A stretch of 64,000 nucleotides of DNA from a virus. Both the position numbers and the translations under genes were made by a program. The stretch is taken from IMG/VR virus record IMGVR_UViG_3300010885_053065, positions 25,720 to 89,719 of that record; one strand, 5' to 3'. The notes beneath the pieces are model-generated. The model did no database searches and was not told the DNA's origin. It saw only the letters and a list, made by a program, of their open reading frames with translations. Below are positions 820-27,674 of the stretch, piece after piece (the first letter of the stretch is position 1; the number at the start of each line of letters is the position of its first letter).

Positions 820-2157
820 GTGAACTACCCGTCGCTCTAGGAGCGCGGGCTTCCAATTTCAATAGGAATAACGTCTAACAAAACCGAAGTTTTACCAGCC
901 CGACTTACATTCCCTCCATTGGCAGTGTCGCTAGTTCCTAACGACAATAATCGCAAGCCTTCTTCTCTTATGTTTATCGCTGCATTTATATCTCTATCGT
1001 GTTGAGTATGGCAGCTAGGGCACTCCCAATGTCTTACATCTAAGGGCATTTCCGACACTTTGTACAAGCAATTACTACAAGTCTTAGAGCTAGGAAACCA
1101 TCTATCTATCTCTAGATAAACCTTTCCTTCTTTCTCTGCTTTGTACTTGAGCATTGTCCCAAACTTACCCCAACTAACATCACTAATAGCTTTAGCTAAT
1201 TTATGGTTGCGTACCATCCCTTTGACATTTAGATTTTCTACGACAATCACTTGGTTATCGTTGACTATCTTGCGAGATAGCTTGTGTAAAAAATCTTCCC
1301 TACAGCGACTTATTTTTGAATGTACTTTAGCTACTAATTTTCTAGCTTTATTTCTTGAGTTACTTCCTTTTTTCTTCCTATTAAGTTTCTGTTGCTTCCT
1401 CTTAAGGTTCTTCTGATGTTTCTTGAAGTGTTTAGGATTATCGTATTTACTGCCATCACTGGTAATAGCAAAATGATTTAATCCTACGTCTATTCCTATA
1501 GCTTTCCCTTCGATTATTGTAGTAGTAGAAGATTCTAATCCATTGTCTGTCAGAATAGAAGCAAAGTATTTACCATCTGGATTCAGTGAGATAGTTACAG
1601 TTTTAATACTGCCCTCTATTGGTCTATGAATCTTACAGTAAATCTCTCCTATCTTAGGAAACTTAATCGCCTCATCTAATATAGTTACTCGCTGAGGATA
1701 GCTAATAGATTGTTTACCATGCTTGGATTTGAAACTAGGTAAACCCGCACGTTTCTCAAAGAAGTTTTTGTAAGCAGTAGATAAATTGAGTGCTACTACT
1801 TGGAGACATTGAGAGTAAGCATCAGACAGCCATTCATATTCTTTCTTTAGATTAGGTAATAAACCCTGAATAACTCCTCTTGATAGACCTTTACCTGTAG
1901 TCTTATAGGTTTCCTGACAAAGATTCAAGCTATAGTTCCAATACCACCTTACACATCCAAACGCCTTTGCTAGTTGCGTTTGCTGTTCATTAGTAGGATA
2001 GATTCTGAACTTATAGGCTTTATACATTTATCAGTTTTCTGTATTACTGCTACAAGTCTAGCGCAACAAAAGGAAGATTGCCAAAGATTCTAGACAATGG
2101 TTTGCTGTCAAAATTCATCCCGACGCTTATTAAGCGCGGGACTTCTTTTGGATTGAG
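820..2157 (-). mobile_element. IS200/IS605-family element, tnpB only (IS1341-like)
   Basis: Similar subterminal hairpins at both ends (CCCGACGCTTATTAAGCGCGGG 2119-2140; CCCGTCGCTCTAGGAGCGCGGG 828-849); right end ...GTAGTTCAC; TTAA immediately outside the left end; no tnpA. Confidence 0.85.
837..2027 (-). CDS. tnpB: RNA-guided endonuclease TnpB
   Basis: N-terminal KAYKFRIYP HTH, RuvC motifs GIDVG, VVENL and DRDINAA, zinc ribbon CSNC...CPSC. Confidence 0.95.
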   Translation of the reverse strand: MYKAYKFRIYPTNEQQTQLAKAFGCVRWYWNYSLNLCQETYKTTGKGLSRGVIQGLLPNLKKEYEWLSDAYSQCLQVVALNLSTAYKNFFEKRAGLPSFKSKHGKQSISYPQRVTILDEAIKFPKIGEIYCKIHRPIEGSIKTVTISLNPDGKYFASILTDNGLESSTTTIIEGKAIGIDVGLNHFAITSDGSKYDNPKHFKKHQKNLKRKQQKLNRKKKGSNSRNKARKLVAKVHSKISRCREDFLHKLSRKIVNDNQVIVVENLNVKGMVRNHKLAKAISDVSWGKFGTMLKYKAEKEGKVYLEIDRWFPSSKTCSNCLYKVSEMPLDVRHWECPSCHTQHDRDINAAINIREEGLRLLSLGTSDTANGGNVSRAGKTSVLLDVIPIEIGSPRS

Positions 2158-8822: not shown

Positions 8823-9294
8823 GGCTAGACCCCTCTTGTAGAGCACATCCCACTGCTCGCACGTTCTGTGCGTGCGCAGTCTTCTGCTAGCACAAATTAT
8901 CGCTCGCACAGGATCAGCAGACATATAAATACGATATATATACAAATAAGAAAAATAACAAACAACAAGATCCGGAGCAGCAGTTGCTTTTGATTTTTAA
9001 AATTAATTAAATTCCTATAACCAATTAAAATACTCTCTAACTCACTTAAATTTGAGCTACAAGACGGGTAAATACACCTAACTTACTCTTTCTACCAAAA
9101 AGAAATAAATAAGCCCCATAGACCAAATTTAAGTGAAATTAGAATCAGTAGGACTTATTTACTTGTTAAGTTGTCTTTTTCTTAATTAAGTTTTTAATGG
9201 TCGGCTGGTGCTTTTGTTTTATAGTAAATGTGCTCAATAAACATTTTTATTTATAGTCTAAACACTTGACACTCACCCAATAAAATGTTATACT
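8823..9294 (+). repeat. ~470-bp non-coding dispersed repeat, copy 1
   Basis: Colinear and highly similar to 28755-29227 (e.g. identical AAGTGAAATTAGAATCAGTAGGACTTATTTACTTGTTAAGTT). Confidence 0.92.
9222..9294 (+). promoter_or_regulatory. Conserved phage promoter, class A copy 1
   Basis: TAGTAA-N3-TGCTCAA box; AAACAC-TTGACA (9266)-N17-TATACT (9289) with extended TG. Confidence 0.8.
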
Positions 9295-9874: not shown

Positions 9875-10303
9875 ATGGAAGCGCTAGAAATGTTAACCCA
9901 AGCTGTTCTATTTTTGATTAACTCTTGTGATGGATGCCGTTCTCAGGATGGTAAAGGTTTTGACCGAACAGACCTTTACAAGTCAAGAGGAATAAAAGCA
10001 GAGATAGAAGAAAATGGGTACATTACCGAAAACAGTTTAATCTGGGCTAAGAAGGTGGTAGTCAAATACCACAGACAGCTAACAAACTTCGATCTCAAGC
10101 TGATGCTACAAGCTGAGAAAAAGCCCAGAAAGATTCAAACTCTTGAGTACGATTCCAGAAGGAAACACCTCTGTGTAATCTACCCATGTGGTGATTACCG
10201 GATGTATAAGACACCTGAGCTACCAGAGTCTCTAATAGAAGAAGCCAGAGAAATCTGGCGAAGAGCAAAAAGAGAGGAAATTCCAATCTTAATCTTTGAC
10301 TAA
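9875..10303 (+). CDS. Hypothetical early protein
   Basis: AAGGAG RBS, own promoter, terminator at ~10308-10336; CDG..SQDGKGF motif. Confidence 0.65.
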   Translation: MEALEMLTQAVLFLINSCDGCRSQDGKGFDRTDLYKSRGIKAEIEENGYITENSLIWAKKVVVKYHRQLTNFDLKLMLQAEKKPRKIQTLEYDSRRKHLCVIYPCGDYRMYKTPELPESLIEEAREIWRRAKREEIPILIFD

Positions 10304-10381
10304 AAACAAAAGCACTCAGAAACGGGTGCTTTTTTCATGCCCACAATTATGTTATTATTCGATCAAAAAGGAGATAGAGCC

Positions 10382-10783
10382 ATGACGGTAGACAGAAAGC
10401 CATGTCCTCACTGTGGTAGTGAAAATGTTCGTAAGAACGGGGTTAACGACTCTGGTAACCCTAGATTATTTTGTAAGGATTGTAGAAAGAGTTTCTCTTT
10501 GATTGACGGAAAAACGATGATCACAGAGATTTTATGGAAACCCAAGAAAGATCTATACGACGAGGGCAAGAAACCATGTCCTCATTGTGGTAGTGGCAAT
10601 ATTAGTAAAAAAGGTAAGGATGAGTCAGGTAACCCTAGACTAGTTTGTAACGACTGTAAAAGGCAGTTCTCTTTAGAGGTAAACCCAAAGGGAGCTAAGA
10701 CTATACTTCCAGATAGACCTCTAACTGGTTACGAAAGAGTAAAGAGATGTTTAGAAAAGAAAAAAAGTTTGAAAAATCTTTAA
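10382..10783 (+). CDS. Tandem IS1/InsA-like zinc-ribbon protein without catalytic domain
   Basis: Two CPHCGS...K.G...SGNPRL.C.DC...F repeats; AAGGAG RBS favours ATG 10382. Confidence 0.75.
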   Translation: MTVDRKPCPHCGSENVRKNGVNDSGNPRLFCKDCRKSFSLIDGKTMITEILWKPKKDLYDEGKKPCPHCGSGNISKKGKDESGNPRLVCNDCKRQFSLEVNPKGAKTILPDRPLTGYERVKRCLEKKKSLKNL

Positions 10784-11239: not shown

Positions 11240-11341
11240 AAAATCTATAAAAGTTCAGTATTTATACGGATACACAAATAAAAATATCGGGTTATTATAA
11301 GAGTATAGAAAAACAAAAGCCGAGAGGCTAAAGGAGACAAG
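11240..11341 (+). repeat. Class B promoter/RBS leader, copy 2
   Basis: Direct repeat of 10773-10876. Confidence 0.85.
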
Positions 11342-11695
11342 TTGACTAACGCAACTACAGCTATTCAATATTTCACAGTTGAATTTTACGGAACAGAACT
11401 AACAGCCGCTATTGATTACGAAGAAAAAGTGATCGGTTTAACAGACCCCGATCAAGTAGCAAATACAATTGATGGTATACTCGAAGAAAAAGGAATAAAA
11501 GAAACAATTGAGATAATCGACGACGAAACACAACAATCTTTTATTATTGAAAACCAAGAGTATGAGCACGCTCTAGACATTCTAAGACAAGAGTTATTTG
11601 AAAGCTTCGAGGCTTACGTCCTCAACCGATTTGGTTTTACTTTAGAACCAGATAATTGCATTCTTGAATCAGGAATACCTGACTACCATTTCTAA
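11342..11695 (+). CDS. Highly acidic small protein (cassette 2)
   Basis: About 26 D/E versus 5 K/R in 117 aa by manual count; AAGGAG RBS. Confidence 0.7.
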   Translation: MTNATTAIQYFTVEFYGTELTAAIDYEEKVIGLTDPDQVANTIDGILEEKGIKETIEIIDDETQQSFIIENQEYEHALDILRQELFESFEAYVLNRFGFTLEPDNCILESGIPDYHF

Positions 11696-15715: not shown

Positions 15716-18444
15716 TGGCTGAGTCTTTAGTAATCTCGCTTGCTATAAGTACTGCTGTTGGCTTTATTGGTTCGTTACTTACTCCAAAGAAAAAGCCAAC
15801 ACTACCAGATATACCAGGTAGTCAATACGGAAAGACTTTAATTAGGGGTTTTGGTACCTTTGCTGTTGAGGGAAATATGATCTTTCCTGAAACTGCTAAC
15901 CAAGCTTTTAGGATTAGTAGAAGCCGTTCTAAAGGAGGTAAAGGGATACCTCAAAGTCAGTCAGAGAGAGTGTACGGTAAGTTCATGGCTGTGTTCTGTC
16001 AAGGTCAAACTACCTTTGATACTCTCTGGATAAATGGAGTTACTCATGGTGGTAACGGTAGTTACGACGGGTACATGACTCAGCAAGGGTTTGATTTTTT
16101 TGATGGCAGACCTTTGACTATTAACGGAGGTGCTCAACTGCCATGGTCAGATGCTCAAGCCATTAACGGAGCTAATAATACACCTGCTTATACTGGTTTA
16201 ACTTGTGCGGCTTTCTCTAATCTTGATTTAACCAAGTTAGGGAACACTTTCCCTACTCAGTTCAAGATGAAATTGGTAGATGTTGAACTTGGTGCAGAAC
16301 CATCTTTAGGTGCTGTTGTCAAGGCTATTTGTAAGTTATCAGGATTATCAGATAGTCAGGTTGACACTAGTGATCTTGCTGGATTTCAGATAGTTGGGTT
16401 CGTTATGGATCAATCTGGAGGTTCTTATAAGGATTCAATTAGTCAATTAGCGTCAGCATGGTTGTTTTATCACACTGAGTTACAGGATGGTACATTAGCC
16501 TTTAGATTCTTTGATAGGAGTTTTACGGGAGATAGCCCATTAATTATTCCTGCTGACGAATTAGGAGCTTATGACGGGGTTGAGAGCAATTTTCCTTTTA
16601 ATATTCGTAGAGATTTTATAGATCCACTAGAACTTCCCTCTAAGATATGGTTGACCTTTACTAACCCCAATATTGGTTTCTATAGAGATACGGTAGTAGG
16701 TGAAGCTCAGTGGGCTAAGCATAAAAATGAACTAAATATAGACTGTTCTAATTGCATCATGACAGCAGGACAGGCTATAACCCAAGTCAGCAGAATGATG
16801 CAACAGTTCTGGGTGCAAAGAAACAAGTTTAAGTTTACACTGCCTCCTGTCAGTCCTAGTAGTGGGTTTAAGTATATTAATCTATCAGTTGGTAACTTAC
16901 TAGAATTACCTACAGGTGAGGTGGTTCAGATTGAGAAGATTGATATAGGTCTCAATTATATAGTTGAGATAGTTGCACACGGATATGGTAAATCATCTTC
17001 TATTACTGCTGGATCAGGTTCTAGTTCAAGTGTCAGCCCTCCTAGAAGCAATTCAGAGTATACAGACAATATTCCTGTTGGATCAACTTCAAATAAGCTA
17101 ACAATACTCGACATTAATACAATATCTGATAGCGACTCAGAAAGAGGTGTTTATGTTACTGCCTCTGGCTCTAATGTCAATGTTCTAGTTTCTATCGATA
17201 ATGGTACTTCTTACTCAAAAGCTACAACCTTAACTACTCCTGGAATTGTTGTCAATAACGTAACAGGAACGCTAATTAGTTGGAGTGATACAACAGCAAC
17301 TGACACGACTAGTACTTTAACAATCCCTCAATCAGTAGGAACTATCTCAAGTATCACTAGTGGTCAAGCAGCTACTCTCACAGAGAATGTCGCTTTTGTT
17401 GGTTCTACTACAACCGTTAACGGCACTTCAGTCTATAGAGGGGAGATAGTTGTTTTTACTACTGTTACCGTCTCTGGCTCAAATTATGTTTTGAGTAACT
17501 TTACTAGAGGGGTTAGAGGAACAGAGTCTTATATGTCTACTCACGGCACCAATACAGACACTTTTGTCTTATTGAATGGTGTTGGTGCTAACGTTTCTAG
17601 AATCTCGATAGACGATCAATATATTGGAACTAATCTATATTTTCAGACAACTAATAATGACTGGCAAACCTCCTATTCAGATCCTTCTGCTACTCAATTT
17701 AGTTATCAGGCTATTGGCTTAAAGCCTTACCAACAGAAGAATATAGCGTTTAACTACGATTCTGCACAAAACATTGTTATCAGTTGGACTAAAGTCCCTA
17801 GAGGGATGGCATTAACAACAGGAGAGTTAATTGATTCTTATTCTCTAGATATCCTAAACAATAGTAATGCTGTTGTAAGAACCTTAACTAGTGCTTCTCC
17901 TGTAGCTATCTACTCCAAGGCTCAGCAGATAACCGACTTTGGTTCAGTCCAAACTAGCTTAAAAGTTAATTTATATAAAGTTTCTAGTATTGTTGGCAGA
18001 GGTTATGTAAGAAGTTTATCAACTACTGTAGCGAGTGCAGGTAGCAGTACTTCTATAGTAGGTGACACAAGTACAGATAGTTTTAAGGCTACTAAAACCA
18101 TTACAGCAAACTATACTGTTTTGACTACTGATAATGGTTATTGGATAGTTGTCAATAACGCAAGTCTTACAGGGAGTGTATCAATTACAATAACAGTTAG
18201 TAATGCGCTCCCATTAGGTTTTAGATGCTATTTTGTTAATCCTTTACCAGTATCTGGCAACAATGTTATTCTTACTTTTGTGTCTTCTACAAGTGAGCCA
18301 TTTTATACAACAAATACCCTAAAACCTGATTCAGTTGGCTTATTGTATTTTCATGGTTCAAGTTGGACTTTGAACTCAGGAAAAGCAGAGTCTGTAGGTG
18401 GTTCAGGATTCACTGATATAGAACAATTGAGATTTTTATTATGA
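15715..18444 (+). CDS. Central tail tip/host-specificity protein (GTA megatron-like)
   Basis: SQYG..L.R.FG...V.GNMI, PAYTGL, ELPS.I.LTF, RGVRGTE; follows the DUF2163 and NlpC genes. Confidence 0.85.
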   Translation: MAESLVISLAISTAVGFIGSLLTPKKKPTLPDIPGSQYGKTLIRGFGTFAVEGNMIFPETANQAFRISRSRSKGGKGIPQSQSERVYGKFMAVFCQGQTTFDTLWINGVTHGGNGSYDGYMTQQGFDFFDGRPLTINGGAQLPWSDAQAINGANNTPAYTGLTCAAFSNLDLTKLGNTFPTQFKMKLVDVELGAEPSLGAVVKAICKLSGLSDSQVDTSDLAGFQIVGFVMDQSGGSYKDSISQLASAWLFYHTELQDGTLAFRFFDRSFTGDSPLIIPADELGAYDGVESNFPFNIRRDFIDPLELPSKIWLTFTNPNIGFYRDTVVGEAQWAKHKNELNIDCSNCIMTAGQAITQVSRMMQQFWVQRNKFKFTLPPVSPSSGFKYINLSVGNLLELPTGEVVQIEKIDIGLNYIVEIVAHGYGKSSSITAGSGSSSSVSPPRSNSEYTDNIPVGSTSNKLTILDINTISDSDSERGVYVTASGSNVNVLVSIDNGTSYSKATTLTTPGIVVNNVTGTLISWSDTTATDTTSTLTIPQSVGTISSITSGQAATLTENVAFVGSTTTVNGTSVYRGEIVVFTTVTVSGSNYVLSNFTRGVRGTESYMSTHGTNTDTFVLLNGVGANVSRISIDDQYIGTNLYFQTTNNDWQTSYSDPSATQFSYQAIGLKPYQQKNIAFNYDSAQNIVISWTKVPRGMALTTGELIDSYSLDILNNSNAVVRTLTSASPVAIYSKAQQITDFGSVQTSLKVNLYKVSSIVGRGYVRSLSTTVASAGSSTSIVGDTSTDSFKATKTITANYTVLTTDNGYWIVVNNASLTGSVSITITVSNALPLGFRCYFVNPLPVSGNNVILTFVSSTSEPFYTTNTLKPDSVGLLYFHGSSWTLNSGKAESVGGSGFTDIEQLRFLL

Positions 18445-18770
18445 CGATCACATATACTCCAAAGACTAAAGCAGCAGTAGCAACTAGTTCTCTTACTACT
18501 ATCTATACTGTACCAAGTGACACTACAACTAGAGTAGAGAAAATTACTATTACAAATGGTGCAACAGCAGGTACAGTCACGCTTAAATTTTACGATGCAA
18601 GTGCTACCACATCTTATTTTTTAGCTTGTAACGCTTATCCAATAGCTGCTAACGCACTAAGGGAAATAGCGGGTGAGATACTAGAAACGGGCGATTATCT
18701 TCAAATTAGTGCAGCTACTACAACCGATCTGACTGTTAAACTGAACTACGTAGAGGCGGTTGTAAGCTAA
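18441..18770 (+). CDS. Small virion/tail-fibre-associated protein
   Basis: TTIYTVP...ILETGDYLQI; Thr/Ala-rich, coupled to tail genes. Confidence 0.65.
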   Translation: MTITYTPKTKAAVATSSLTTIYTVPSDTTTRVEKITITNGATAGTVTLKFYDASATTSYFLACNAYPIAANALREIAGEILETGDYLQISAATTTDLTVKLNYVEAVVS

Positions 18771-19546
18771 TGTTTTTAAGATCTCCTAGACCTGATTTAC
18801 TAGAGACTAGAGATAACTTTGGGATTGTGGCAAGTAGTTTAGGTGACAATAATTTAAAAAGCAATTTGCTAAGTTATTGGGATCTAACACCTGCCTCTAG
18901 TTATAATGATCTAACAAATAATGGTAGTAACTTAACGTTAATTAATTCTCCTAGTGGAGATAATACAAATGGTGTATTATTAAATGGTACTAATCAATAT
19001 TTATCGGTTGCTAGTAATTCGTATCTTCAATTTACTAGTAGCGATTTTACTATAGCTGGTTGGATCAATCCAACTTCTTTAGCTGCCAACGGAAGTTACA
19101 ATTTTATTGTTTGCCAAGACAATATTGGGGTTGGTAGAAATTGGGGGGTTATTTATGATCCGACTACTGCAGATACTAAATTAAATTTTCAAATTTTTAA
19201 CTCATCTGGATCAGCTTTCTCTGTTAAATCAAACTTTCAACCAACAATAAATAATTGGTATTTTTTAGTTGCAACACACTCTACCTCTGCAAAAAAAATT
19301 ACATTTATTGTTTTTGAAGGGTCTACCACTACACCTGTTTACGCAGGTGTAGTGACTTACACAGGAACTTTGGCAACAAATTCTTTACTAACTACTTTTG
19401 GTTGCGTTTTAATTTCTGGTAGTCCAAATTTTTATTTTAATGGTAGGTTAAAGCAATGGGGTATTTGGTCTAGAACATTAACAGGATCAGATATTCTGCA
19501 ACTGCATAATAGCGGTAATGGGTTATTTTTTTCTTCGCTAGATTAG
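18770..19546 (+). CDS. LamG/concanavalin A-like lectin domain protein
   Basis: LNGTNQYL, FTIAGWINP, WYFLVAT, FNGRL..WGIWSRTLT. Confidence 0.85.
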   Translation: MFLRSPRPDLLETRDNFGIVASSLGDNNLKSNLLSYWDLTPASSYNDLTNNGSNLTLINSPSGDNTNGVLLNGTNQYLSVASNSYLQFTSSDFTIAGWINPTSLAANGSYNFIVCQDNIGVGRNWGVIYDPTTADTKLNFQIFNSSGSAFSVKSNFQPTINNWYFLVATHSTSAKKITFIVFEGSTTTPVYAGVVTYTGTLATNSLLTTFGCVLISGSPNFYFNGRLKQWGIWSRTLTGSDILQLHNSGNGLFFSSLD

Positions 19547-19554
19547 AGTTAATA

Positions 19555-20241
19555 TTAATCAACATCTGATTGGTTGGATTGAGCAATATAAGAGATTAAC
19601 TCAAGAAATCTACCACCACGCTTAGTAGATATCAATTGCTCTGTTGAGTGAAAATCTAATACTGAGTAGAGTTTAAATAGATTCTGAGATTTGTAGACAC
19701 CTGATAGTATCTCTGTCTTAGTGCATCCAAGAGACATTAACAGTTCAAAATAACCTAAAAACTCTATTAGCTCTTGTCTATTTATAGTAAGTAGATTTAT
19801 CTCAAAAAGTACAGGAAATATTTCTCTACTATTAGCTTCTTTAGCTAAGAATAAAATATGCTTTTGTCCAGATTCAGCTATAGCAATAGTAAAAGGCGGT
19901 TCAGGAGGGTTAACAAGCCATTCTCTAATCTGTGGTCTTGTGGGTAAGTCGGTTACTCTATCACCTTCAATCTTAGGGTAAGACTCTTTCTCTGAAATTA
20001 ACCAAGACCAACAACGACCAAATAATAGTACTTCTTTTTGACTATGTGGATTATAGTATTTAAGTCTTAGAGGGATAACGTAATGACAACGATCACATAA
20101 CTTATCAGAGGTTGGAGACTTAGCTGAACTGTGAGCCGTGAAACTGTCTTTTAGTATTCCTTCTTTAGGTTTGGTGGCAGGAATTGAACCACAGAGATAG
20201 CATGAGTCTTTTATTTTAGTGTCACTAGTCACGTCACTCAC
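19555..20241 (-). CDS. csf1: Type IV CRISPR Cas8-like Csf1
   Basis: CYLCG...KDSFT.H...LCDRC zinc finger; PPEPPF.IAIAESGQKHILF; both candidate GTG starts (20241, 20232) lie in repeat 1. Confidence 0.8.
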   Translation of the reverse strand: MSDVTSDTKIKDSCYLCGSIPATKPKEGILKDSFTAHSSAKSPTSDKLCDRCHYVIPLRLKYYNPHSQKEVLLFGRCWSWLISEKESYPKIEGDRVTDLPTRPQIREWLVNPPEPPFTIAIAESGQKHILFLAKEANSREIFPVLFEINLLTINRQELIEFLGYFELLMSLGCTKTEILSGVYKSQNLFKLYSVLDFHSTEQLISTKRGGRFLELISYIAQSNQSDVD

Positions 20242-20815
20242 CTTGGCTTTGGTAATAGTTCTCTTGGAGAGTTGGGAGATTTGTGTGCTATGTCACTAAA
20301 CACGACACTTGCCTTGGCTTTGGTAATACTAAAATTGTGAACTGCATAAAGAGAAGTGACATCCTCAAAAATGATTTTCTCTTTAATTTTGAGATCTTCT
20401 AGGCTATCGTAATCTACAGGCTCTCCATCTTCGGTGAGCAAGAATATATCCTGAGCGCCTATTCTGAGTGCATAAACTACATCAGGACGACTAGGCAGTG
20501 AGACGCTGTAAAGGGTATATTGTCCCATACTAATAAGGCTTAAAACAGCATCTGGGAGTTTACTGAGACGACTTTTTGGGATGGACGAAGTGGTGATCAT
20601 GGCTCTATCCTCTCTTTATTAGCTAATCTCAAAGTTGTAACAGATTACCAACTTGTTACCAAAAGATGATGGTGGCTAAAGTGAAGTAAATGGGTATTAA
20701 TGGTTAACTAAGCATTATGCTCAATTTATGGATTACATTCTACCTACAATCTAGCTCACTAAAAATATTTATTTCTGGTCACTAAACGCGTCACTTACCT
20801 TGGCTTTAGCAGTAG
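20221..20815 (-). CRISPR. Putative degenerate mini-array: three 38-bp repeats (20221-20258, 20292-20329, 20778-20815), one 33-nt spacer and one 448-bp interval
   Basis: Pairwise identity 31-32/38; plus-strand consensus GTCACTAAACACGTCACTTACCTTGGCTTTGGTAATAG with a TTACC/GGTAA stem; lies between cas6 and csf1. Orientation is assumed from the operon. Confidence 0.55.
20238..20600 (-). CDS. Hypothetical protein starting between repeats 3 and 2 and reading through repeat 2, the spacer and part of repeat 1
   Basis: GAGAGGATAGAGCC-ATG RBS; last ~30 aa are translated repeat/spacer. Confidence 0.5.
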   Translation of the reverse strand: MITTSSIPKSRLSKLPDAVLSLISMGQYTLYSVSLPSRPDVVYALRIGAQDIFLLTEDGEPVDYDSLEDLKIKEKIIFEDVTSLYAVHNFSITKAKASVVFSDIAHKSPNSPRELLPKPR

Positions 20816-20827
20816 CCTGTCTTTAGT

Positions 20828-21088
20828 TCAAGAGTAGATCAATTCAGCTATTCGTTTTTCCTCAGCCAGAAATTTTAATAAGTTATCGGGAAGCGGAACA
20901 GCTTGTAACTCAATCCAGTACAAACAATGTCTTGGCGCAAATTCTATATCACGATCTGTAGAAGATCCTACGGGAAAGCCATTCATGTCTAAATATCTCA
21001 ACACATCAAACAACTCCTCTTTGTCTTTTGTCCTAAATATCAACTTTGAAGAATTGCGAGGTGACTGCAAATATATTTCATACATCAT
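20828..21088 (-). CDS. Hypothetical protein
   Basis: AAGG RBS; ends 12 bp before repeat 3. Confidence 0.55.
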   Translation of the reverse strand: MMYEIYLQSPRNSSKLIFRTKDKEELFDVLRYLDMNGFPVGSSTDRDIEFAPRHCLYWIELQAVPLPDNLLKFLAEEKRIAELIYS

Positions 21089-21090
21089 TT

Positions 21091-21390
21091 TTACCTTAAT
21101 AGATGATAAACTTTATTGTTACACAACAAAAAACTTTTACCTATTTTCTCCAAACCTTTATTTAATATGTTGATTGCTGCATTTTGATCCCTATCTAAAA
21201 CACATTGACAGTGTGGGCATTGATGCAGTCTTACACTTAAAAGTTTTGGCACTTTTTCACCGCAACTTGAGCAATTCTGAGAAGTGTTGTGGGGGTTAAC
21301 TTCTATTACTTGAACTCCAAACTTAGAAGCTATTTCCTTTAGTCTTAAAACAAAATAACCCCATGCTGCATTAGAAATAGCTTTAGAAGG
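21091..21390 (-). pseudogene. tnpB: TnpB C-terminal remnant (not in the ORF track)
   Basis: Manual translation SKAISNAAWGYF...VNPHNTSQNCSSCG...HQCPHC..LDRDQNAAINIL; no upstream start in frame. Confidence 0.85.
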
Positions 21391-21512
21391 ATTTTCACAG
21401 TAAATTTTTGCATAACAGGATCGGTAGAGCCAAAACTTTTTTCATATGACACTCCGATAGTTTTTATTAGCGAGAAATCAAAAAGCCTAGAGTAATCTAG
21501 GCTGATAGTGTG

Positions 21513-21578
21513 GTTTAGTATTCCTTCTTTAGATTTGGTGGCAGGAATCGAACCACAAAGATAGCAAGAGTCTTTCAC
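21513..21578 (-). pseudogene. Duplicated 5' end of csf1
   Basis: GTG-KDSCYLCGSIPATKSKEGIL nearly identical in DNA to ~20149-20211, then diverges. Confidence 0.8.
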
Positions 21579-21592
21579 GCAATCTACAAATA

Positions 21593-21952
21593 TTATTTAA
21601 GTTTTTTCTCTATTGTAGTGGTGATGGTCTGATTGATAATCATAAGCTCTTTCTTGTTTTCGGTAATAGTTATAGTATGTTTGGTATCTTCTCTTACAGA
21701 ATTTACTTCTGTATCATCTCTATTGGTATTAATAACTTTTTTAGAATAATCTACATCATACTCAATTCTTTTTATGTTGCATGTTTTAGGTTGTAAATTA
21801 CAACTGGGTTGAATACTGGTAGAGCATCTATTTAAATTTGATATTTTGCAAGCTGGCGTGTTTTTAAGAGTCTCAAGATCTTCTGCTAGCACACTATTTG
21901 TATTTACTTCTAATGCAATAAAAAGTAATAAAATAAACAATGAAATACGCAT
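21593..21952 (-). CDS. Secreted Cys-containing hypothetical protein
   Basis: N-terminal signal peptide MRISLFILLLFIAL...VLA. Confidence 0.55.
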   Translation of the reverse strand: MRISLFILLLFIALEVNTNSVLAEDLETLKNTPACKISNLNRCSTSIQPSCNLQPKTCNIKRIEYDVDYSKKVINTNRDDTEVNSVREDTKHTITITENKKELMIINQTITTTIEKKLK

Positions 21953-22070
21953 AAGTTAAACCCCTGTTTCTTTATGATTTATTAATATTTTAACAACAAA
22001 ATATAGTTTTCTGTATACACTTTTCATTGTTTTAAGATATTCTCGTTTTATATTTAATAGTTCCGATAAT

Positions 22071-22655
22071 TTAAACAAACACTCCACAACCTAACTTGTG
22101 TTTACCGCCAATACCTGACACTTGAAGCTTAATAGAATCTTCTTTACTTAAGTTAAATGCTTTAGCTTTAAACCCTACTACAGTATAATTCCTCTCACTT
22201 CTTGGGATGCGTATTGTCAGTCTTTCTAATACTTCAATATCTGCTTTAATCTCTAACTTATCTAGTTGTTTATCTGCTGCTATTTTAAATAGCTCTGGAG
22301 TGACAGCATTCTTGATTACAACCAATCTAGCTATTAACTCTGTTTTACCTTCTAGCATCCTATATAAAGGGTTTCCTAGCCTTATTTGGTAGCGCATTAT
22401 CTTAAGGTTAGAGTCTTTAAGTTTAGTAAATAACTTGGCGTTATCTATAGTTGTTCTGATTAACAAAGTAGATTTATCTGTTAATTTAATCTCTCCATTG
22501 TTGTTAGGGAGTCCAGTTATTGTGTTAATAAAAACTTCCTCTAGACTATGGAGTTCTTGTATTTTTGAACACAAAGCAGAGTATAGATAATAATTATGGT
22601 CAGCATAGAGAGACTGACCATAAACAGGGAATAGAATATCAACAAATTGAGACAA
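22071..22655 (-). CDS. cas6: CRISPR endoribonuclease Cas6, MYXAN/I-B type
   Basis: VDILFPV.G..L.ADHNY.LYSAL N-terminus; S..LQ..GIGGKHKLGCGVF glycine loop. Confidence 0.9.
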   Translation of the reverse strand: MSQFVDILFPVYGQSLYADHNYYLYSALCSKIQELHSLEEVFINTITGLPNNNGEIKLTDKSTLLIRTTIDNAKLFTKLKDSNLKIMRYQIRLGNPLYRMLEGKTELIARLVVIKNAVTPELFKIAADKQLDKLEIKADIEVLERLTIRIPRSERNYTVVGFKAKAFNLSKEDSIKLQVSGIGGKHKLGCGVFV

Positions 22656-22674
22656 GTTAAATTAATTTCTCCAG

Positions 22675-23442
22675 TTACTGTAGAGACAAACTAACCAAGT
22701 TAAGTTTGTCTCTAGTCTCGTTCAAATCTTTTTCTATGTAATCTGAGACTGGAAAATCACTAAAAATATCAACAGAGTTTACTCCTATATTCCAAGCTTT
22801 AACAATGCGCTCAGTTTTAAAATAATCAACTCCTTGTGCTTCTAAAAATATCTGTAGTTGCTCCAACAATAGAATAGGAGGATTGCAGCGATTTATCATT
22901 CCTTCTTCAAAAGCAATTATTTCTAGTTCTCCTTGTACTGTAGTAGGAACATCTAGTAATATATGGTGAAAATCATGAACCAAGATATAGCTAGACGGAA
23001 ACATTGATGGTTTATCTACTGTTGCTACGTTTCCATTATTTTGATAATACTGGTGTAGAGCATATCCTACTGTTCCCTTCTTACAAAAAGGAAGTTTTTT
23101 AAAAAGTTTTATATTTTCTGGGTTAGGAGTTAATGATTCTAAGAAATAGCTTTTGAGTCCAATTAATTTATCTTTTAAAGACATAAAAGGCAATATTTTT
23201 GGCATTGTTTGTGTCCTTAAAGTACAAGTTGGTCTTACGTATTCAAACCTTATTCGGCTAAAGATCTGCCATAAATTAGCAGAAGTAACACCTAGTAAAT
23301 TAACTGGTGTCAGTAAACTTACTACATCGATTTCTGGTTTAACTAATTTAATAATTTCTTCTCTATTTTCTGCTTGAATAATTCGATTAAATAGATTATT
23401 ATCGGTCAAAACTTGTTCAAGAAAATTAAGTTCAACAGTCAT
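22675..23442 (-). CDS. Coq4-like metal-binding protein
   Basis: GTVGYAL..YY and HDFHHIL..VPTT.QGELEI.AF (HDxxH-x11-E). Confidence 0.6.
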   Translation of the reverse strand: MTVELNFLEQVLTDNNLFNRIIQAENREEIIKLVKPEIDVVSLLTPVNLLGVTSANLWQIFSRIRFEYVRPTCTLRTQTMPKILPFMSLKDKLIGLKSYFLESLTPNPENIKLFKKLPFCKKGTVGYALHQYYQNNGNVATVDKPSMFPSSYILVHDFHHILLDVPTTVQGELEIIAFEEGMINRCNPPILLLEQLQIFLEAQGVDYFKTERIVKAWNIGVNSVDIFSDFPVSDYIEKDLNETRDKLNLVSLSLQ

Positions 23443-24163
23443 AAAATGCCTCAGTTACATTCTGTTTTAAATATGAGTATAACATAGGATTAAATCGCTT
23501 CATGTTCTCTAAAGAGGTTTTCTGTAAGGATTTGTTTTTGTTAGCAGAATACCAATAATTAGCATGAGCATTGGTTCTACTTGTTTTACGGTCTAATTTG
23601 TCATACAAGTCCAAGTAAGGAATATCATAATAAAAAAGATAAGCCCAAACATCCTGCCATGACCACCATGCAAGAGGACATACTCTATAGTATCCTTTAT
23701 GTTTTCCTGTTTGGTATTGATGAATTAACCCGTATTTTTTTAGAGATCTTCTTCTATTAATACTTTCTTCTGCTCTTAGCCCAACAAAAGCCACACTGTA
23801 ATCAACTACTGCATTTATCCTGTCTTGGACTGTATCAGAAGTAGCAGCATTCTCTTTTTGAGCTTTAATATCTAAATACTTAGTTGGAAATTTCTCACAA
23901 TACCTAGAGATTGTTTCCGAGTAATTAGAAACATAATCTTGCTCTATTGAGCTATAACAAACTGCAGCAATATCAGGTTTAATTTGTTGGCAAAGGTGCA
24001 ACATTACGGTTGAATCTTTGCCCCAACTAATAGCTACATAAGAGTCACCAATCTCTAGAGCTTCAGAAATTATTTGCTTGGATTTCTCTACTCTTTTTTT
24101 AAAGCTATCTAGTAGCGCATAACCTCTATAGGCTTGATATTCTGGATCATCTTTTAAAAGCAA
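23432..24163 (-). CDS. cysH: CysH/PAPS-reductase-like protein of type IV-B loci
   Basis: SWGKDS PP-loop, VGLRAEES..RR, CPLAWWSWQDVWAY. Confidence 0.85.
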   Translation of the reverse strand: MLLKDDPEYQAYRGYALLDSFKKRVEKSKQIISEALEIGDSYVAISWGKDSTVMLHLCQQIKPDIAAVCYSSIEQDYVSNYSETISRYCEKFPTKYLDIKAQKENAATSDTVQDRINAVVDYSVAFVGLRAEESINRRRSLKKYGLIHQYQTGKHKGYYRVCPLAWWSWQDVWAYLFYYDIPYLDLYDKLDRKTSRTNAHANYWYSANKNKSLQKTSLENMKRFNPMLYSYLKQNVTEAFYDC

Positions 24164-24166
24164 CTG

Positions 24167-24865
24167 TCAATTAGCATTGGTTTTTAACCTAGGCTTCTCC
24201 TTAATCTGTCTTACATTGTCTTTTGGTATATAACACAGTACTTGATTCTGATGCATCCATGATGGTGTTTTCCAAGCCACAACCATCATGTCATGCACCT
24301 CTAAATCTAGTTGCTGTGCCATCTCTAAAGGAATTGGTCTTGTGACACGTCTTTCTTTCTCAAACGACCAGTCATAGTCAATTTCTTTAACTGACCACTC
24401 AGAGACATAAGCAAAGCCGTAGGATCTCTTTTTCCCTAAGTGAGTAACTGTAGATAGAGCTAACTTTATCTGCTCTTTATCTCCTACTACAAACCAGTCA
24501 ATCCTTTCAGTAAGCTTCAAGAATAGAGGTAGATCATAAGACTTGAATTGACCATCTGAGCCAGAAAACTTAGCCTTCTTCTTACCCCAATCAAGATGCT
24601 CACTTTGATAATCCCACCGTTTTCTATATCTATCAGTACTCTCTATAGAGTATAAGTAGTGAGGACTAGAAGCTTGATAGAAACCTAGTTCATGCTTTTT
24701 AATTGGTAACTCAATCTCAGTTAAAGTCTCAAAGGTTACGTTAGTGTCAAGTCTACCAGTTGATTCTCTAACTGAGTACTCTATTATCCCTGTGATATCA
24801 GGAGAAAGATTGTCTGTTACAGCAATAGGTCTAGCTAGATTAGCTGTTATTTGTAAAGGAATCAT
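24167..24865 (-). CDS. csf3: Type IV CRISPR Cas5-group Csf3
   Basis: PLQITANL..PI, WF.VGD...I, HLGKKRSYGF..V..W.V, RPIP. Confidence 0.85.
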   Translation of the reverse strand: MIPLQITANLARPIAVTDNLSPDITGIIEYSVRESTGRLDTNVTFETLTEIELPIKKHELGFYQASSPHYLYSIESTDRYRKRWDYQSEHLDWGKKKAKFSGSDGQFKSYDLPLFLKLTERIDWFVVGDKEQIKLALSTVTHLGKKRSYGFAYVSEWSVKEIDYDWSFEKERRVTRPIPLEMAQQLDLEVHDMMVVAWKTPSWMHQNQVLCYIPKDNVRQIKEKPRLKTNAN

Positions 24866-25425
24866 GGCTTACTTAAATCCAATTGATTACAAAGTTTATC
24901 TATTACCAAGTGATAAACAGTACCACTAGAGCCAGACTCATGTGTGTTAATTAATAGTTCAACTAAAGCAAAAAAACTTAAAGGTCCTTGAAGCGTTACG
25001 TCCAACTGCAAAGAAGAAATAACATTTTTTATCTTCTCAGCAAGAACGTTTAGTAGACACTTTTTAATCGAGATTCTTGATGGCTCAAAAAGATGTACTG
25101 ATAGATAAATATAGGCAGCAACTAGGTCAATTAGTGAGTGTTCTTCTGACTCAATATCAGTTGCTTCTGTTGTGGATAATACTGATTCAATTGTTGTCAT
25201 TTCTACCTGATTAATTATTTCTATTTGTTGTGATTCTTCTATTTTATCAATTGTCTCTTCTTGCTCAGTAATCCCAATACCGTGCTCATTTAGATATTTC
25301 AAATACCAATTACGCATCGTTTTAGGAGGAACCAAAGGGAAATCTTTATAAAGTCTTCTAGGTTGACTTCCATTTCTAAACCTATTTAATATCTCTGACT
25401 TGTACTTGTCTCCTCTACTAGCCAT
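24862..25425 (-). CDS. Putative HTH regulator between csf2 and csf3
   Basis: N-terminal EILNRF..G..PRRLYKDFP.VP.KTMRNW HTH-like segment; translationally coupled on both sides. Confidence 0.5.
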   Translation of the reverse strand: MASRGDKYKSEILNRFRNGSQPRRLYKDFPLVPPKTMRNWYLKYLNEHGIGITEQEETIDKIEESQQIEIINQVEMTTIESVLSTTEATDIESEEHSLIDLVAAYIYLSVHLFEPSRISIKKCLLNVLAEKIKNVISSLQLDVTLQGPLSFFALVELLINTHESGSSGTVYHLVIDKLCNQLDLSKP

Positions 25426-26588
25426 TATCCAAATACTCCCTTGATTTCACTGTTATTACTTTTAATAAACTCTCGATAATCAGCCAGATAAGATTTATAT
25501 CTCTCTTGCTGTAGACTAGCTCTACTTTCTAATACTTGATGTCCATCTTTAATTGATATCCAACTACCTGCTTCTTCTCCACTAGAGTAATAAATCTCTA
25601 CAGCAACTCTACCGAAACCTGTATTACTCATCCCTCCTAAATAAGGATTCTCTGCCCAATTGCTAATAGCATCAGCTATAAACCCTTCCTCAATATCAGT
25701 AACGTTAGCATCCCACCGAGAGTAGAGTTTTGCTCCTTGCTGTATTAACCATGCACCCATAATCATTTGATTAGACTTTTGTTTCTCTTCTTTTTTCTCT
25801 GTACTATCTCCAAATAAAGATTGTTGTCCTTCTTTAGATGCAGCAGGCAATAAGTACTTAACAAGAGAAGGATCATGGTGTGAGTCCATTCTTACCTTTT
25901 GGTTATAGGTTAACCAGTGTGGGTAAGGTCTGAGAATCTCTTGTAGGTAGGGTAGCCAATACTTTAGAGTTTCTTTGTAGCTAGTATCGTCTAGCGTCTG
26001 TTCTCTCTTAAAGAGGAAATTAGAGACTCTTGTTTCCTCTAAATCTTTTTTAGCTTGAGAGATAGCTTTTAACCCCTCTAAAGCAGCTGCAGGTAAAGCA
26101 GGTTGAAATATTTGAAACTGATTTAAGGCTGACTCGTAACAAATAAGCATTGCATCGCCAACATTAATCCGACCTGGAATCATTTGAGCATCTTTACCAC
26201 CAAAGACTCCTTTAGGTTTAGCTGTTCCTAGTACTGATATAGGAGGTAAAAACTGTCTTATCTTTTTATCAAGCTCTAGATCATTAGCTGTACCACCATC
26301 AATTGCACCACCACAGAACAAAGTATGATGCAAGATTGGAGATACCTGTATCCCTAGTTCACTTAAGAAAGAATCGACTCCTACACGTCTTAATATTCTG
26401 TTCCTTAGTGCGTTACCTGAGAGACAAAATACTTGGCTAGGATTGCCTTCTATATCGGTTATAGCTAGAGTTTTGAGGTTAGCTTGATTGCCTACTGATT
26501 CTCCAATATGGGATAGAGGTGACAAAGTTTCTATTACTAAGTGAAAAGTAATTCTGTGGCGTTGGTTCGGGTTGTAATTATTTGGCAT
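25425..26588 (-). CDS. csf2: Type IV CRISPR Cas7-group Csf2
   Basis: TLSPLSHIGE, LSGNALR..ILRR, LFCGGA, ISVLG, GRINVG, QMI, LGGMS.TGFGRV. Confidence 0.9.
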   Translation of the reverse strand: MPNNYNPNQRHRITFHLVIETLSPLSHIGESVGNQANLKTLAITDIEGNPSQVFCLSGNALRNRILRRVGVDSFLSELGIQVSPILHHTLFCGGAIDGGTANDLELDKKIRQFLPPISVLGTAKPKGVFGGKDAQMIPGRINVGDAMLICYESALNQFQIFQPALPAAALEGLKAISQAKKDLEETRVSNFLFKREQTLDDTSYKETLKYWLPYLQEILRPYPHWLTYNQKVRMDSHHDPSLVKYLLPAASKEGQQSLFGDSTEKKEEKQKSNQMIMGAWLIQQGAKLYSRWDANVTDIEEGFIADAISNWAENPYLGGMSNTGFGRVAVEIYYSSGEEAGSWISIKDGHQVLESRASLQQERYKSYLADYREFIKSNNSEIKGVFG

Positions 26589-26897
26589 TTAACTATTAAT
26601 TATCTCCTCTTCATCTGGATAAACCTTTGTGGTCTTTTCACTTACGTAATAAATTTCAAGATTTGGACAAAGAGACAATATTTTGTCTGACTCTTCTTGT
26701 CGTCTTTGTTTTTCATACTCAATCATTTTATCTATTAACAATTCTTCATCTTTTTCTTGATGAGCGTCTACAAGGAACTTAGCTACTTTATCTAAATTTC
26801 TACTTATTTCATTGGGATTATTACAATCAATAGACTCTACAAACAATCGTCCTGCATCATCTGGAGTCAACTTCTCTATCGCCTTTTTAGACATCAA
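26589..26897 (-). CDS. Hypothetical acidic protein
   Basis: Coupled ORF between the cas11-like gene and csf2. Confidence 0.5.
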   Translation of the reverse strand: MMSKKAIEKLTPDDAGRLFVESIDCNNPNEISRNLDKVAKFLVDAHQEKDEELLIDKMIEYEKQRRQEESDKILSLCPNLEIYYVSEKTTKVYPDEEEIINS

Positions 26898-27399
26898 TTA
26901 CATCCTCATCTTCTTGTTTATTGAGCCATAAAGCTTTATCTTCTTCATGTTTTAAGCGAACATATAAAGCGACAATTTGTGACTTTTCTAGACACTGTCT
27001 TAATACGGCTCTATCGGTTATTCCAAACTGAATAGACCACCGTTTTATTATATCTTCCCAAGATTCCCACACTAAAGACTGATCTGAGTCAATCTGTTGT
27101 ATTTCTCCTACATTTCCATCCTCAGCTTTAGCTGCTCTTAAAATTACTTGTTGAGGTTGAACTAATCTAGTCCACTCTTTAGGTTTAAGTGTTGGAACAA
27201 CCAATCTTTTAGAGAGATAGTGAATATAGTCGTTTAAGTTTCTAGAGGGAATAGCAGCATTTTCTATTGATGTTTGAACATACTCCCAAGTCTTAATTCC
27301 GTTAGCAGGAGAACGTTGTTTGTCACGGCATCTAAATACCCAATAAGTTAAGGCGCTAGCTAAAGCTATTGGTTTGTCTTCTGTATTAATTCCTAACAA
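26887..27399 (-). CDS. Putative type IV-B small subunit (Cas11-like)
   Basis: Helical 170-aa protein just upstream of csf2; W..V...IENAA...L.DY...L...L and IVALYVRLKHEEDK; mainly positional inference. Confidence 0.55.
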   Translation of the reverse strand: MLGINTEDKPIALASALTYWVFRCRDKQRSPANGIKTWEYVQTSIENAAIPSRNLNDYIHYLSKRLVVPTLKPKEWTRLVQPQQVILRAAKAEDGNVGEIQQIDSDQSLVWESWEDIIKRWSIQFGITDRAVLRQCLEKSQIVALYVRLKHEEDKALWLNKQEDEDVIDV

Positions 27400-27674
27400 A
27401 TTCTTGTCCCTATTTCTATTAATAATTTTCCGTCAGAATCTAATTGATATTCTATAAATTCTAACTTACGGTAAACAATTTGATTACCTGTGTGATAACA
27501 CTTGTTTATCTTTATACACATATATTCAATTGACGGAGATTTGTATTTTTTTAAATGATTCTGTAAACGCTTTTTACAATCTTCTAGATTATAAAAATTT
27601 CTTCGTTCAATACAATACTCTGTTTTTTTAGAGATTAAATCTACTTTAATATACTCAAAATAATAAAAAAACAT
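27393..27674 (-). CDS. Hypothetical inserted gene
   Basis: Very AT-rich; flanked by a 16-bp duplication of the cas11-like start. Confidence 0.45.
   Translation of the reverse strand: MFFYYFEYIKVDLISKKTEYCIERRNFYNLEDCKKRLQNHLKKYKSPSIEYMCIKINKCYHTGNQIVYRKLEFIEYQLDSDGKLLIEIGTRIC

Follow-up and report, generated by a model that had tools for sequence, protein, structure and literature searches.

The type IV-B-like operon and its linked cas6

We analysed a 64,000-nt stretch of viral DNA (hereafter the window; positions 25720-89719 of the 89,719-bp IMG/VR virus record IMGVR_UViG_3300010885_053065) in which a type IV-B-like CRISPR module lies together with a cas6 gene and three CRISPR-type repeats. 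Coordinates refer to the window unless they are marked as genome positions. Nine open reading frames (ORFs) run on the minus strand from 27674 down to 22071, and each junction between them is an overlap or a gap of no more than 19 nt. Their order is orf93, cas11, orf102, csf2, orf187, csf3, cysH-like, Coq4-like and cas6, with csf1 further down. Judged by its sequence, the effector operon (cas11-csf2-csf3-cysH-like ... csf1) is intact and type IV-B-like and appears co-translated, and it is carried by a complete tailed phage. Its genes are as follows:

27393-27674, minus strand: orf93, a small ORF that overlaps the cas11 start by 7 nt; no homologue in related loci
26887-27399, minus strand: cas11, type IV small subunit (PADLOC typeIV_Cas11, 4.6e-13); in 60 related rows of the census given below
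26589-26897, minus strand: orf102, an acidic ORFan between cas11 and csf2; no family match and no homologue in relatives
25425-26588, minus strand: csf2, type IV Cas7 (PADLOC Csf2_0_IV, 5e-43)
24862-25425, minus strand: orf187, an ORFan; no family match and no homologue in relatives
24167-24865, minus strand: csf3, type IV Cas5 (PADLOC Csf3_0_IV, 1.2e-38)
23432-24163, minus strand: cysH-like PP-loop enzyme, the signature accessory gene of IV-B (Pfam PAPS_reduct, 4.5e-16)
22675-23442, minus strand: Coq4-like putative metalloenzyme, directly after cysH (Pfam Coq4, PF05019, 24.1 bits, cut-off 22.9)
22071-22655, minus strand: cas6 of the type I-B/MYXAN (Cmx6) kind (Pfam Cas6, 7e-51)
19555-20241, minus strand: csf1, type IV large subunit, full length (PADLOC Csf1_0_IV, 2.3e-25), with a CxxC...CxxC pattern

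A first reading of this DNA from the letters alone (the sequence-only reading) had described a co-oriented set of cas11-like, csf2, csf3, cysH-like, Coq4-like, cas6 and csf1 genes. Congruently, each of them matched a profile on the minus strand at its expected place, and typing with PADLOC, Pfam and NCBIfam cas6_cmx6 recovered both the Csf and the Cas6 families. The ORF at 24862-25425, which had been read as a helix-turn-helix (HTH) gene, is present as a reading frame, but its label found no support, as it matches no family; the first 46 residues of its product are 57% identical to the start of an ORF at genome positions 25216-25734.

The csf1, csf2 and csf3 products are divergent members of their families, since their NCBIfam equivalog scores (42-47 bits) fall far under the cut-offs of 130-140; Csf2, for example, scored 44.8 against TIGR03115, with a cut-off of 130. 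The only sequence match of Csf2 among PDB structures was the type IV-B Csf2 of 7JHY (E 0.0023). The cysteine pairs of Csf1 are conserved across 44 relatives, and the PP-loop S[GW]GKDS of the cysH-like protein is kept in 53 of 56 aligned relatives. For the Coq4-like gene, the AlphaFold model has a pLDDT of 84, and its top three Foldseek matches were the Nostoc Coq4-family structures 6E12_A, 6E12_B and 3MSQ_A, although these matches are weak (E 0.01-0.05, TM 0.36-0.44). An HDxxH-x11-E motif, which we take to be the Coq4 metal motif, is kept in all nine Coq4-like homologues. Profile, motif and model together place the gene at 22675-23442 as a putative member of the Coq4 family.

By gene content, the presence of Csf2 points to type IV, and cas11, csf3, csf1 and the cysH-like gene to subtype IV-B. 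The profile searches are likewise consistent with the lack of a helicase, of adaptation genes and of a Cas10-like HD subunit that defines this subtype. Cas1 (PF01867), the DinG DEAD_2 domain (PF06733) and the RecD-type AAA_30 domain (PF13604) were not matched anywhere in the 89.7-kb genome in searches that included positive controls, in agreement with the absence of cas1 and DinG proposed from the sequence. Cas2 and Cas10 matched no gene of the locus in general profile searches, no search dedicated to either having been made. The locus departs from the subtype definition in having a Cas6, where IV-B calls for none, and, if only formally, in its repeats, where IV-B calls for no array. The picture of a nuclease-free IV-B-like module with a linked Cas6 (cas11, csf1-3 and cysH-like, with neither helicase nor Cas1) was thus borne out.

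The Cas6 scored 154.6 bits against NCBIfam cas6_cmx6 (TIGR02807; cut-off 98.85) and aligned from end to end with the type I-B Cas6 of PDB 8FCJ (1.3e-22), including the C-terminal glycine-rich loop, which is also present in the alignment of the relatives' Cas6 proteins. A cyanobacterial metagenome-assembled genome (MAG) encodes a 43%-identical Cas6 in a type I locus. The I-B/MYXAN repeat beside that host gene has a clear 5-bp hairpin just upstream of the 8-nt 3' handle and shares 16 of 36 positions, counted by eye, with the phage repeat. A word-index search for further Cas6 homologues returned only three matches and was uninformative, and no tblastn match for Csf2 or Cas6 was found among GenBank phage isolates.

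A cassette in the csf1 5' end

To place the repeats, a second locus of the same phage is needed. An intact small type V locus lies outside the window at genome positions 17193-19184 (L068 4193-6184; we number related loci L0nn and whole records G4nn, with G406 the record of L014, G407 that of L021 and G404 holding L089). It encodes a 467-aa Cas12-like protein (PADLOC Cas12f, 1.6e-44; Cas12u2, 2e-43) and, 268 nt from this gene, a regular five-repeat array (the main array, genome 17193-17512) with spacers of 27-40 nt. Between the gene and the array lies an inverted copy of the repeat that matches it at 26 of 36 positions, 24 of them within the first 28. This copy looks like the anti-repeat of a trans-activating CRISPR RNA (tracrRNA), so the repeat family belongs to a class 2, tracrRNA-type system. 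With this locus as reference, the features between cas6 and csf1 are:

21593-21952, minus strand: orf119, an ORFan with a hydrophobic N-terminus; no homologue in relatives
21503-21578, minus strand: old csf1 start (GTG 21578) plus 73 nt duplicating csf1 codons 2-25; left border of the cassette
21484-21503, minus strand: 8-bp hairpin plus T-run, resembling a terminator or the end of an insertion sequence (IS), at the break of the old csf1 start
~21091-21345, minus strand: C-terminal remnant of a TnpB/Cas12-family gene, ~80 aa, with the zinc ribbon and RuvC-III region (tblastn)
20828-21088, minus strand: orf86, an ORFan in the 277-nt gap between the remnant and R1; no homologue in relatives
20778-20813, minus strand: repeat R1, 36 nt; 24/36 to the main-array repeat; 450 nt from R2
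20238-20600, minus strand: orf120, an ORFan with a Shine-Dalgarno-like site; spans R2 and the spacer and terminates within R3
20292-20327, minus strand: repeat R2, 36 nt; 28/36 to the main-array repeat and 29/36 to its variant copy
20257-20291, minus strand: mini-array spacer, 35 nt, between R2 and R3; no target found
20221-20256, minus strand: repeat R3, 36 nt; 25/36 to the main-array repeat; holds both candidate csf1 starts

The span covered by the sequence-only reading thus also holds two elements that it did not mention, the TnpB/Cas12 remnant (~21091-21345) and a duplicated csf1 5' end (21503-21575). Its claim of repeats held up: the three 36-nt copies are real, and since the frame of orf120 differs between R2 and R3, what is repeated is the nucleic acid. 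R1-R3 have the same orientation as the main-array repeat. Outside both arrays, no 36-mer of the genome exceeds 23 of 36 matches to the main repeat, save the anti-repeat, and the maximum in 20 shuffled genomes was also 23. The R2-spacer-R3 unit (36/35/36 nt) is array-like; R1 lies 450 nt off, and the repeats are degenerate, being mutually identical at 29-31 of 36 positions compared with 35-36 of 36 for those of the main array. None of the three has a conserved hairpin, and their fold energies fall within the range of shuffled sequences.

Two copies of the csf1 5' end flank the 1.3-kb cassette (20221-21503): the 73 nt that follow the csf1 start codon are found both at 20139-20211 and at 21503-21575 (89% identity). 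The full csf1 copy has ATA in place of the old start codon. The only in-frame starts left to csf1, GTG 20241 and GTG 20232, are both within R3, which also provides an AAGG Shine-Dalgarno-like site 9 nt upstream of GTG 20232. From one end to the other, the cassette comprises the remnant, the 277-nt gap with orf86, R1, a 450-nt stretch with the start of orf120, R2, the spacer and R3. This order, orientation and spacing are those of the intact Cas12-type locus 29 kb away; the gap between remnant and R1 compares with 268 nt in the intact locus and 255 nt in Aphanizomenon phage CL131. The layout is that of type V-U2-like loci, with a TnpB-like effector followed after ~260 nt by a co-oriented array of the same repeat family.

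Given the TnpB/Cas12 remnant within the cassette, the homology of the repeats and the match of its layout to the intact locus, R1-R3 are most likely what is left of a type V (TnpB/Cas12, V-U2-like) cassette that entered the csf1 5' end and decayed. The insertion most likely duplicated 73 nt of csf1 and left the last repeat to serve as its Shine-Dalgarno site and start codon.

Two further members of the TnpB/Cas12 family bear mention. In a tblastn alignment, the 467-aa protein lacks cysteine pairs at the place of the zinc ribbon seen in the remnant and in CL131 gp061. A third member is encoded in the window by a full-length 396-aa TnpB/Cas12f-like gene (837-2027, minus strand; PADLOC Cas12f, 1e-60).

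The mini-array spacer was matched nowhere else in the phage genome, nor anywhere in 1.27 Mb of related loci. No exact match to it was found in IMG/VR, searched with two 23-nt parts, or in metagenome contigs, searched with the central 23-nt part; imperfect protospacers would be missed by these two scans. A search of 401 sampled cyanobacterial genomes that allowed up to 3 mismatches did not find the 36-nt main repeat, nor was a degenerate pattern of the repeat family found in IMG/VR. A shorter degenerate pattern proved too loose for metagenome contigs, where it gave at least 119 single chance hits, and its only double hit (L151) was an unrelated satellite. The first main-array spacer (L068 4229-4266) matches csf2 of L048-L061 (8344-8360) at 16 of 17 positions (E 0.43), which is probably due to chance.

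Distribution of cas6, csf1 and arrays among related loci

We found 236 Csf2 homologues in the protein collection, and an alignment-based scan gave 56 viral loci and four loci in cellular assemblies. Genes were counted with iterated profiles in the window and these 60 loci (61 rows); the counts are of rows, not lineages, with 47 different Csf2 proteins among 59 rows, and some loci are cut by contig ends. Cas11 was detected in 60 rows, csf3 and cysH in nearly all untruncated ones and csf1 in 44. The Coq4-like gene is present in nine of the 61 rows, each time directly after cysH, and orf93, orf102, orf187, orf119, orf120 and orf86 have no homologue in the 60 related loci.

Linkage of cas6 to the module extends to the relatives, as the sequence-only reading would require: 22 of the 61 rows have the gene, in three Csf2 lineages and at four different operon positions. 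In a quick Csf2 tree (SH-aLRT support, midpoint root), the window falls in a 100%-supported clade of six rows, all of them cas6-positive. A second clade of seven rows is likewise cas6-positive throughout, and in a third, with near-identical Csf2, cysH is followed by csf1 in some rows and by cas6 in others. This pattern requires at least five changes on the tree. In G406 and G407, cas6 occupies the operon place of csf1, which lies 30-50 kb away (G406 9998-10732; G407 66246-66959). Among ten whole records with a cas6-less locus, four are complete and hold no cas6 at all, and one has an unlinked copy. On this distribution, Cas6 appears to be a recurrent and mobile but optional part of the IV-B module of this phage clade. 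It also appears to be older than the cassette, because cas6 is common to all six rows of the window's clade, whereas the repeats are confined to the window and missing from its five closest relatives.

Arrays do not follow cas6 in these loci, since two cas6-positive phage genomes are array-free and the near-module arrays among the 60 loci occur in cas6-negative rows. The array scan of four cas6-positive whole records tolerated mismatches and did detect R2 and R3 of the window. In G405 (96% complete) and G406 (terminal repeats, 100%) it found no CRISPR-like repeat pair. G407 has a two-repeat unit beside a Cas12-like gene, and G404, which is flagged as a provirus, has two arrays 40 kb from the module (L089 2000-5300; G404 42.0-45.3 kb). 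The G404 arrays have a classic 36-nt repeat ending in GAAAC and flank a gene for a 457-aa HNH-domain protein, in DNA that may be of phage or host origin.

The type IV-B module repeatedly adjoins small Cas12 loci (window, L047, L040/L041/L043/L051). L040, L041 and L043 have long arrays 1-5 kb from csf1, next to a 622-aa gene that lies 1-3 kb downstream of csf1 (L041 12188-14056; also L043, L040 and L051); the L041 protein is the solved Cas12p of PDB 9JFS (E 0). L047 has two 37-nt repeats with a 14-nt spacer (11310-11397), bordered by the end of csf1 on one side and on the other by that of an intact Cas12u2 gene (4e-165), which is nearly identical to CL131 gp061. In L052, an array lies ~1 kb beyond csf1. 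Comparison of the window locus with four related whole genomes revealed no conserved non-coding element, as only coding regions align.

Some of these loci share an insertion signature, in which new small genes are flanked by the duplicated 5' end of the downstream gene. It was observed at the window csf1 (20139-20211 / 21503-21575), at cas6 in L009-L011 (L009 5293-5359 / 5596-5662) and at a small gene in L033 (8573-8621 / 8842-8890), and the first 46 codons of another gene are copied at the start of orf187 (24862-25425). Direct repeats of 67 and 49 nt next to cas6 in L009-L011 and L033 were considered as RNA repeats and rejected, being such duplicated gene 5' ends around inserted small ORFs. 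About ten 37-nt tandem hairpin units (CCCCAC-NNN-GTGGGG) in L034 (4150-4560), 3 kb upstream of cas11, have no spacers and so are no CRISPR array.

The phage and its likely host

The virus record has 123-bp direct terminal repeats at its ends and a completeness rating of 100%, and PHROG matches around the type IV locus include portal, tail, tail-assembly, integrase and anti-repressor genes, all of which agrees with the earlier description of the module as phage-encoded. By its portal protein, the closest isolate is Aphanizomenon phage CL131, at 27% identity. Csf2 relatives are labelled by their sources as Pseudanabaena or Cyanobacteriota MAG proteins, and two of them lie on small contigs of Dolichospermum and Spirulinaceae MAGs. 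Because of the CL131 portal similarity and these cyanobacterial sources, the host is probably a freshwater cyanobacterium. A second freshwater sample holds the same phage sequence, cassette included.

Rfam and tRNA scans of the window found nothing. Elsewhere in the window, imperfect periodic repeats of 90 nt (~59300-61150; genome 85016-86866) correspond to a 30-residue protein repeat within a 1871-aa ORF (58361-63976).

Possible roles of the module

Our results are best accommodated by an intact IV-B operon that has gained Cas6 and a Coq4-like gene, in which the repeats are the wreck of a type V locus and the Cas6 substrate is made elsewhere; we give this reading a probability of about 0.6. 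The substrate would probably be repeat-bearing RNA from host CRISPR transcripts or from phage type V arrays, a source that we favour because cas6 predates the cassette and persists in array-free relatives. For the biochemistry we infer the following steps. Cas6 would cut and hold repeat-bearing RNA, giving the filament a defined RNA in place of the heterogeneous RNA bound by the Cas6-less Mycobacterium complex. By analogy with class 1 complexes and the 7JHY structure, as far as described, Csf2 and Cas11 may form a filament on this RNA that is capped by Csf3 and Csf1, and the resulting nuclease-free assembly would bind a complementary target. The CysH-like PP-loop enzyme, joined by the Coq4-like metalloenzyme, may then be the effector partner that acts on what is bound.

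Several observations weigh against this reading. The remnant is 40% identical to the phage's own Cas12-like protein, 44% to the TnpB at 837-2027 and 36% to CL131 gp061 (tblastn), and so stands no nearer to the phage's Cas12-like gene than to an ordinary TnpB. The cassette gap holds no tracrRNA-like anti-repeat, and the best plus-strand matches of R1-R3 lie elsewhere (R2 pairs at 23 of 36 positions with the anti-repeat of the main locus). Nor is this gap significantly similar to that of the main locus, as 105 of 300 shuffles scored as high, or to that of CL131. Moreover, the mini-array has the orientation of the csf operon, and its place between cas6 and csf1 is one that a type IV array could occupy; Cas6 may be able to cut R1-R3; and the repeated adjacency of IV-B modules and Cas12 arrays could mean shared guides and not just an insertion hot spot. 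Finally, an archaeal virus IV-B locus with a two-repeat mini-array is in print (PMC10848311).

A rival is the proposal of the sequence-only reading, that the module makes its own Cas6-processed guides. The mini-array would be transcribed with the operon and cut by Cas6, and a single crRNA, perhaps with an RNA of the 450-nt interval, would load the Csf complex and silence a competitor or host gene. The repeats, cas6 and csf genes are indeed adjacent and co-oriented, the 35-nt spacer is of normal length, the Cas6 keeps its glycine-rich loop and aligns in full with a solved type I-B Cas6, and the archaeal viral mini-array offers a precedent. We nevertheless consider this proposal unlikely. The repeats came with a TnpB/Cas12 cassette and are homologous to a tracrRNA-linked class 2 repeat; they are degenerate, with two of them 450 nt apart; and they have no conserved hairpin and fold no better than shuffled sequences, whereas the host repeat linked to the similar Cas6 has a hairpin. 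The other cas6-positive relatives lack such repeats, a hairpin with a T-run separates cas6 from them, and no protospacer turned up in the genome, the 1.27 Mb of relatives or, by exact-part scans, IMG/VR and the metagenome contigs. In addition, if Cas6 cut R3 at the canonical site, 8 nt from its 3' end, both csf1 starts would lie upstream of the cut and be lost from the message, so that guide processing and csf1 translation from one transcript would conflict. Of the proposal, the linked Cas6 stands; a guide store made of these repeats is not supported, in view of the type V cassette, the array-free cas6-positive relatives and the missing protospacer.

Counter-defence by capture of host crRNA, as the main purpose of the module, is quite improbable in our judgement. 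Here the phage Cas6 would capture host pre-crRNA of a cyanobacterial I-B, I-D or III system, and the Csf filament would sequester or redirect the crRNAs, with no need for an array of its own. This would suit a Cas6 of the cyanobacterial type I-B/MYXAN kind with a 43%-identical counterpart in a type I locus of a cyanobacterial MAG, as well as the complete cas6-positive phage genomes without arrays, and sequestration by IV-B has been proposed in print (PMC7038947, PMC8175902). On the other hand, no repeat of a host has been paired with the phage Cas6, and the absence of Cas6 from four complete related phage genomes means that the module can do without it. The proposal also leaves the CysH-like and Coq4-like enzymes unexplained, and the authors of PMC7038947, who raise it, deem so complex an anti-CRISPR unlikely in the part of their text that bears on it.

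More doubtful still is a scheme in which Cas6 acts as an adaptor that loads the nuclease-free Csf-CysH machine from class 2-type repeats. A single set of spacers would in that case guide a cutter as well as a modifier or silencer that does not cut, and the mini-array would couple guide processing to csf1 expression.

That the module is decaying, non-functional cargo in an insertion hot spot is very improbable: five ORFans (orf93, orf102, orf187, orf119 and orf120/orf86) and an IS-type remnant do lie in or around the operon and the original csf1 start is lost, but none of the seven Cas and accessory genes is truncated and their motifs are conserved, their junctions overlap or are tight, csf1 has regained an in-frame start with a Shine-Dalgarno-like site, and the same sequence occurs in two samples.

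Under the reading we prefer, in which the Cas6 substrate comes from elsewhere, the window locus has a limit as a model, as its repeats are probably not the answer to what RNA the module carries and its own-guide feature is probably an insertion accident. The wider clade has more to offer. Among the common CRISPR subtypes, type IV-B is the only one with its RNA partner and function still listed as unknown in the available text of reviews and classification papers from 2021-2025, and a phage clade that repeatedly carries Cas6 with IV-B provides a concrete handle on that partner: the substrate of Cas6 would reveal which RNA the Csf filament is built for. The repeated siting beside small Cas12 arrays, including that in the phage of the solved Cas12p, is a further handle on the IV-B question, and the Coq4-like gene that travels with the cysH-like one adds a second enzyme to the unexplained accessory side of IV-B.

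Relation to known systems

With the IV-B system of Mycobacterium sp. JS623 (PDB 7JHY) and its kin, as described in the available text of PMC7937560, PMC8175902 and PMC7038947, the window locus shares cas11, csf2, csf3, csf1 and a cysH-like gene, carriage on a mobile element and the lack of a helicase, Cas1 or effector nuclease. In contrast to the JS623 type, it has a Cas6, a Coq4-like gene and three in-locus repeats, and its carrier is a virulent-looking or temperate tailed phage instead of an actinobacterial plasmid. AMPylation-type chemistry has been proposed for the CysH-like enzyme (PMC8175902). Cas6 is rare in IV-B, with "only 12 instances" according to PMC7038947. Subtype IV-A (csf5/cas6, array, DinG) also links a Cas6 to the Csf complex, and its interference is nuclease-free in most variants; unlike IV-A, the window locus has no DinG, contains cas11 and a cysH-like gene, and has a Cas6 of the type I-B/MYXAN kind and not Csf5.

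The closest viral parallel is the IV-B locus with a two-repeat mini-array in the "Fuxiviridae" viruses of Bathyarchaeia (PMC10848311). Both loci are virus-encoded IV-B with a cysH-like gene and two repeats around one spacer whose target was not found. The Fuxivirus locus is archaeal and without Cas6, a term that does not occur in the available text of PMC10848311, whereas that of the window belongs to a phage of a bacterial host and has repeats traceable to a type V cassette.

On the type V side, the V-U2 locus of Aphanizomenon phage vB_AphaS-CL131 consists of an effector, 255 nt and an array of 36-nt repeats with uneven spacers (PMC6293099), and the Cas12p "Cas12 hacker" has a 37-nt repeat and a tracrRNA (bioRxiv 10.1101/2025.01.20.633832; PDB 9JFS). 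The term "type IV" is absent from the available text of the latter report, which there does not discuss the IV-B operon adjoining Cas12p in its phage. Both the cassette and the main locus follow this cyanophage V-U2/Cas12p plan of a small TnpB-like effector, a gap of ~255-277 nt and repeats of 36-37 nt with unevenly sized spacers; the cassette differs from such loci in its effector, cut to ~80 codons, in its degenerate repeats and in having no anti-repeat.

Rare IV-B loci with Cas6, a viral IV-B mini-array and the cyanophage type V-U2 and Cas12p loci are thus already in print. A cyanophage IV-B module with Cas6 or a Coq4-like gene is not described in the literature at hand, although Supplementary Data S1 of PMC7038947, which holds the 12 loci, may include relatives. 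Compared with that literature, the present analysis adds a cas6-rich cyanophage clade in which cas6 and csf1 swap positions, a Coq4-like partner of the cysH-like gene, the adjacency of IV-B modules to Cas12 loci and a mini-array, apparently derived from type V, that is fused to the start of csf1.

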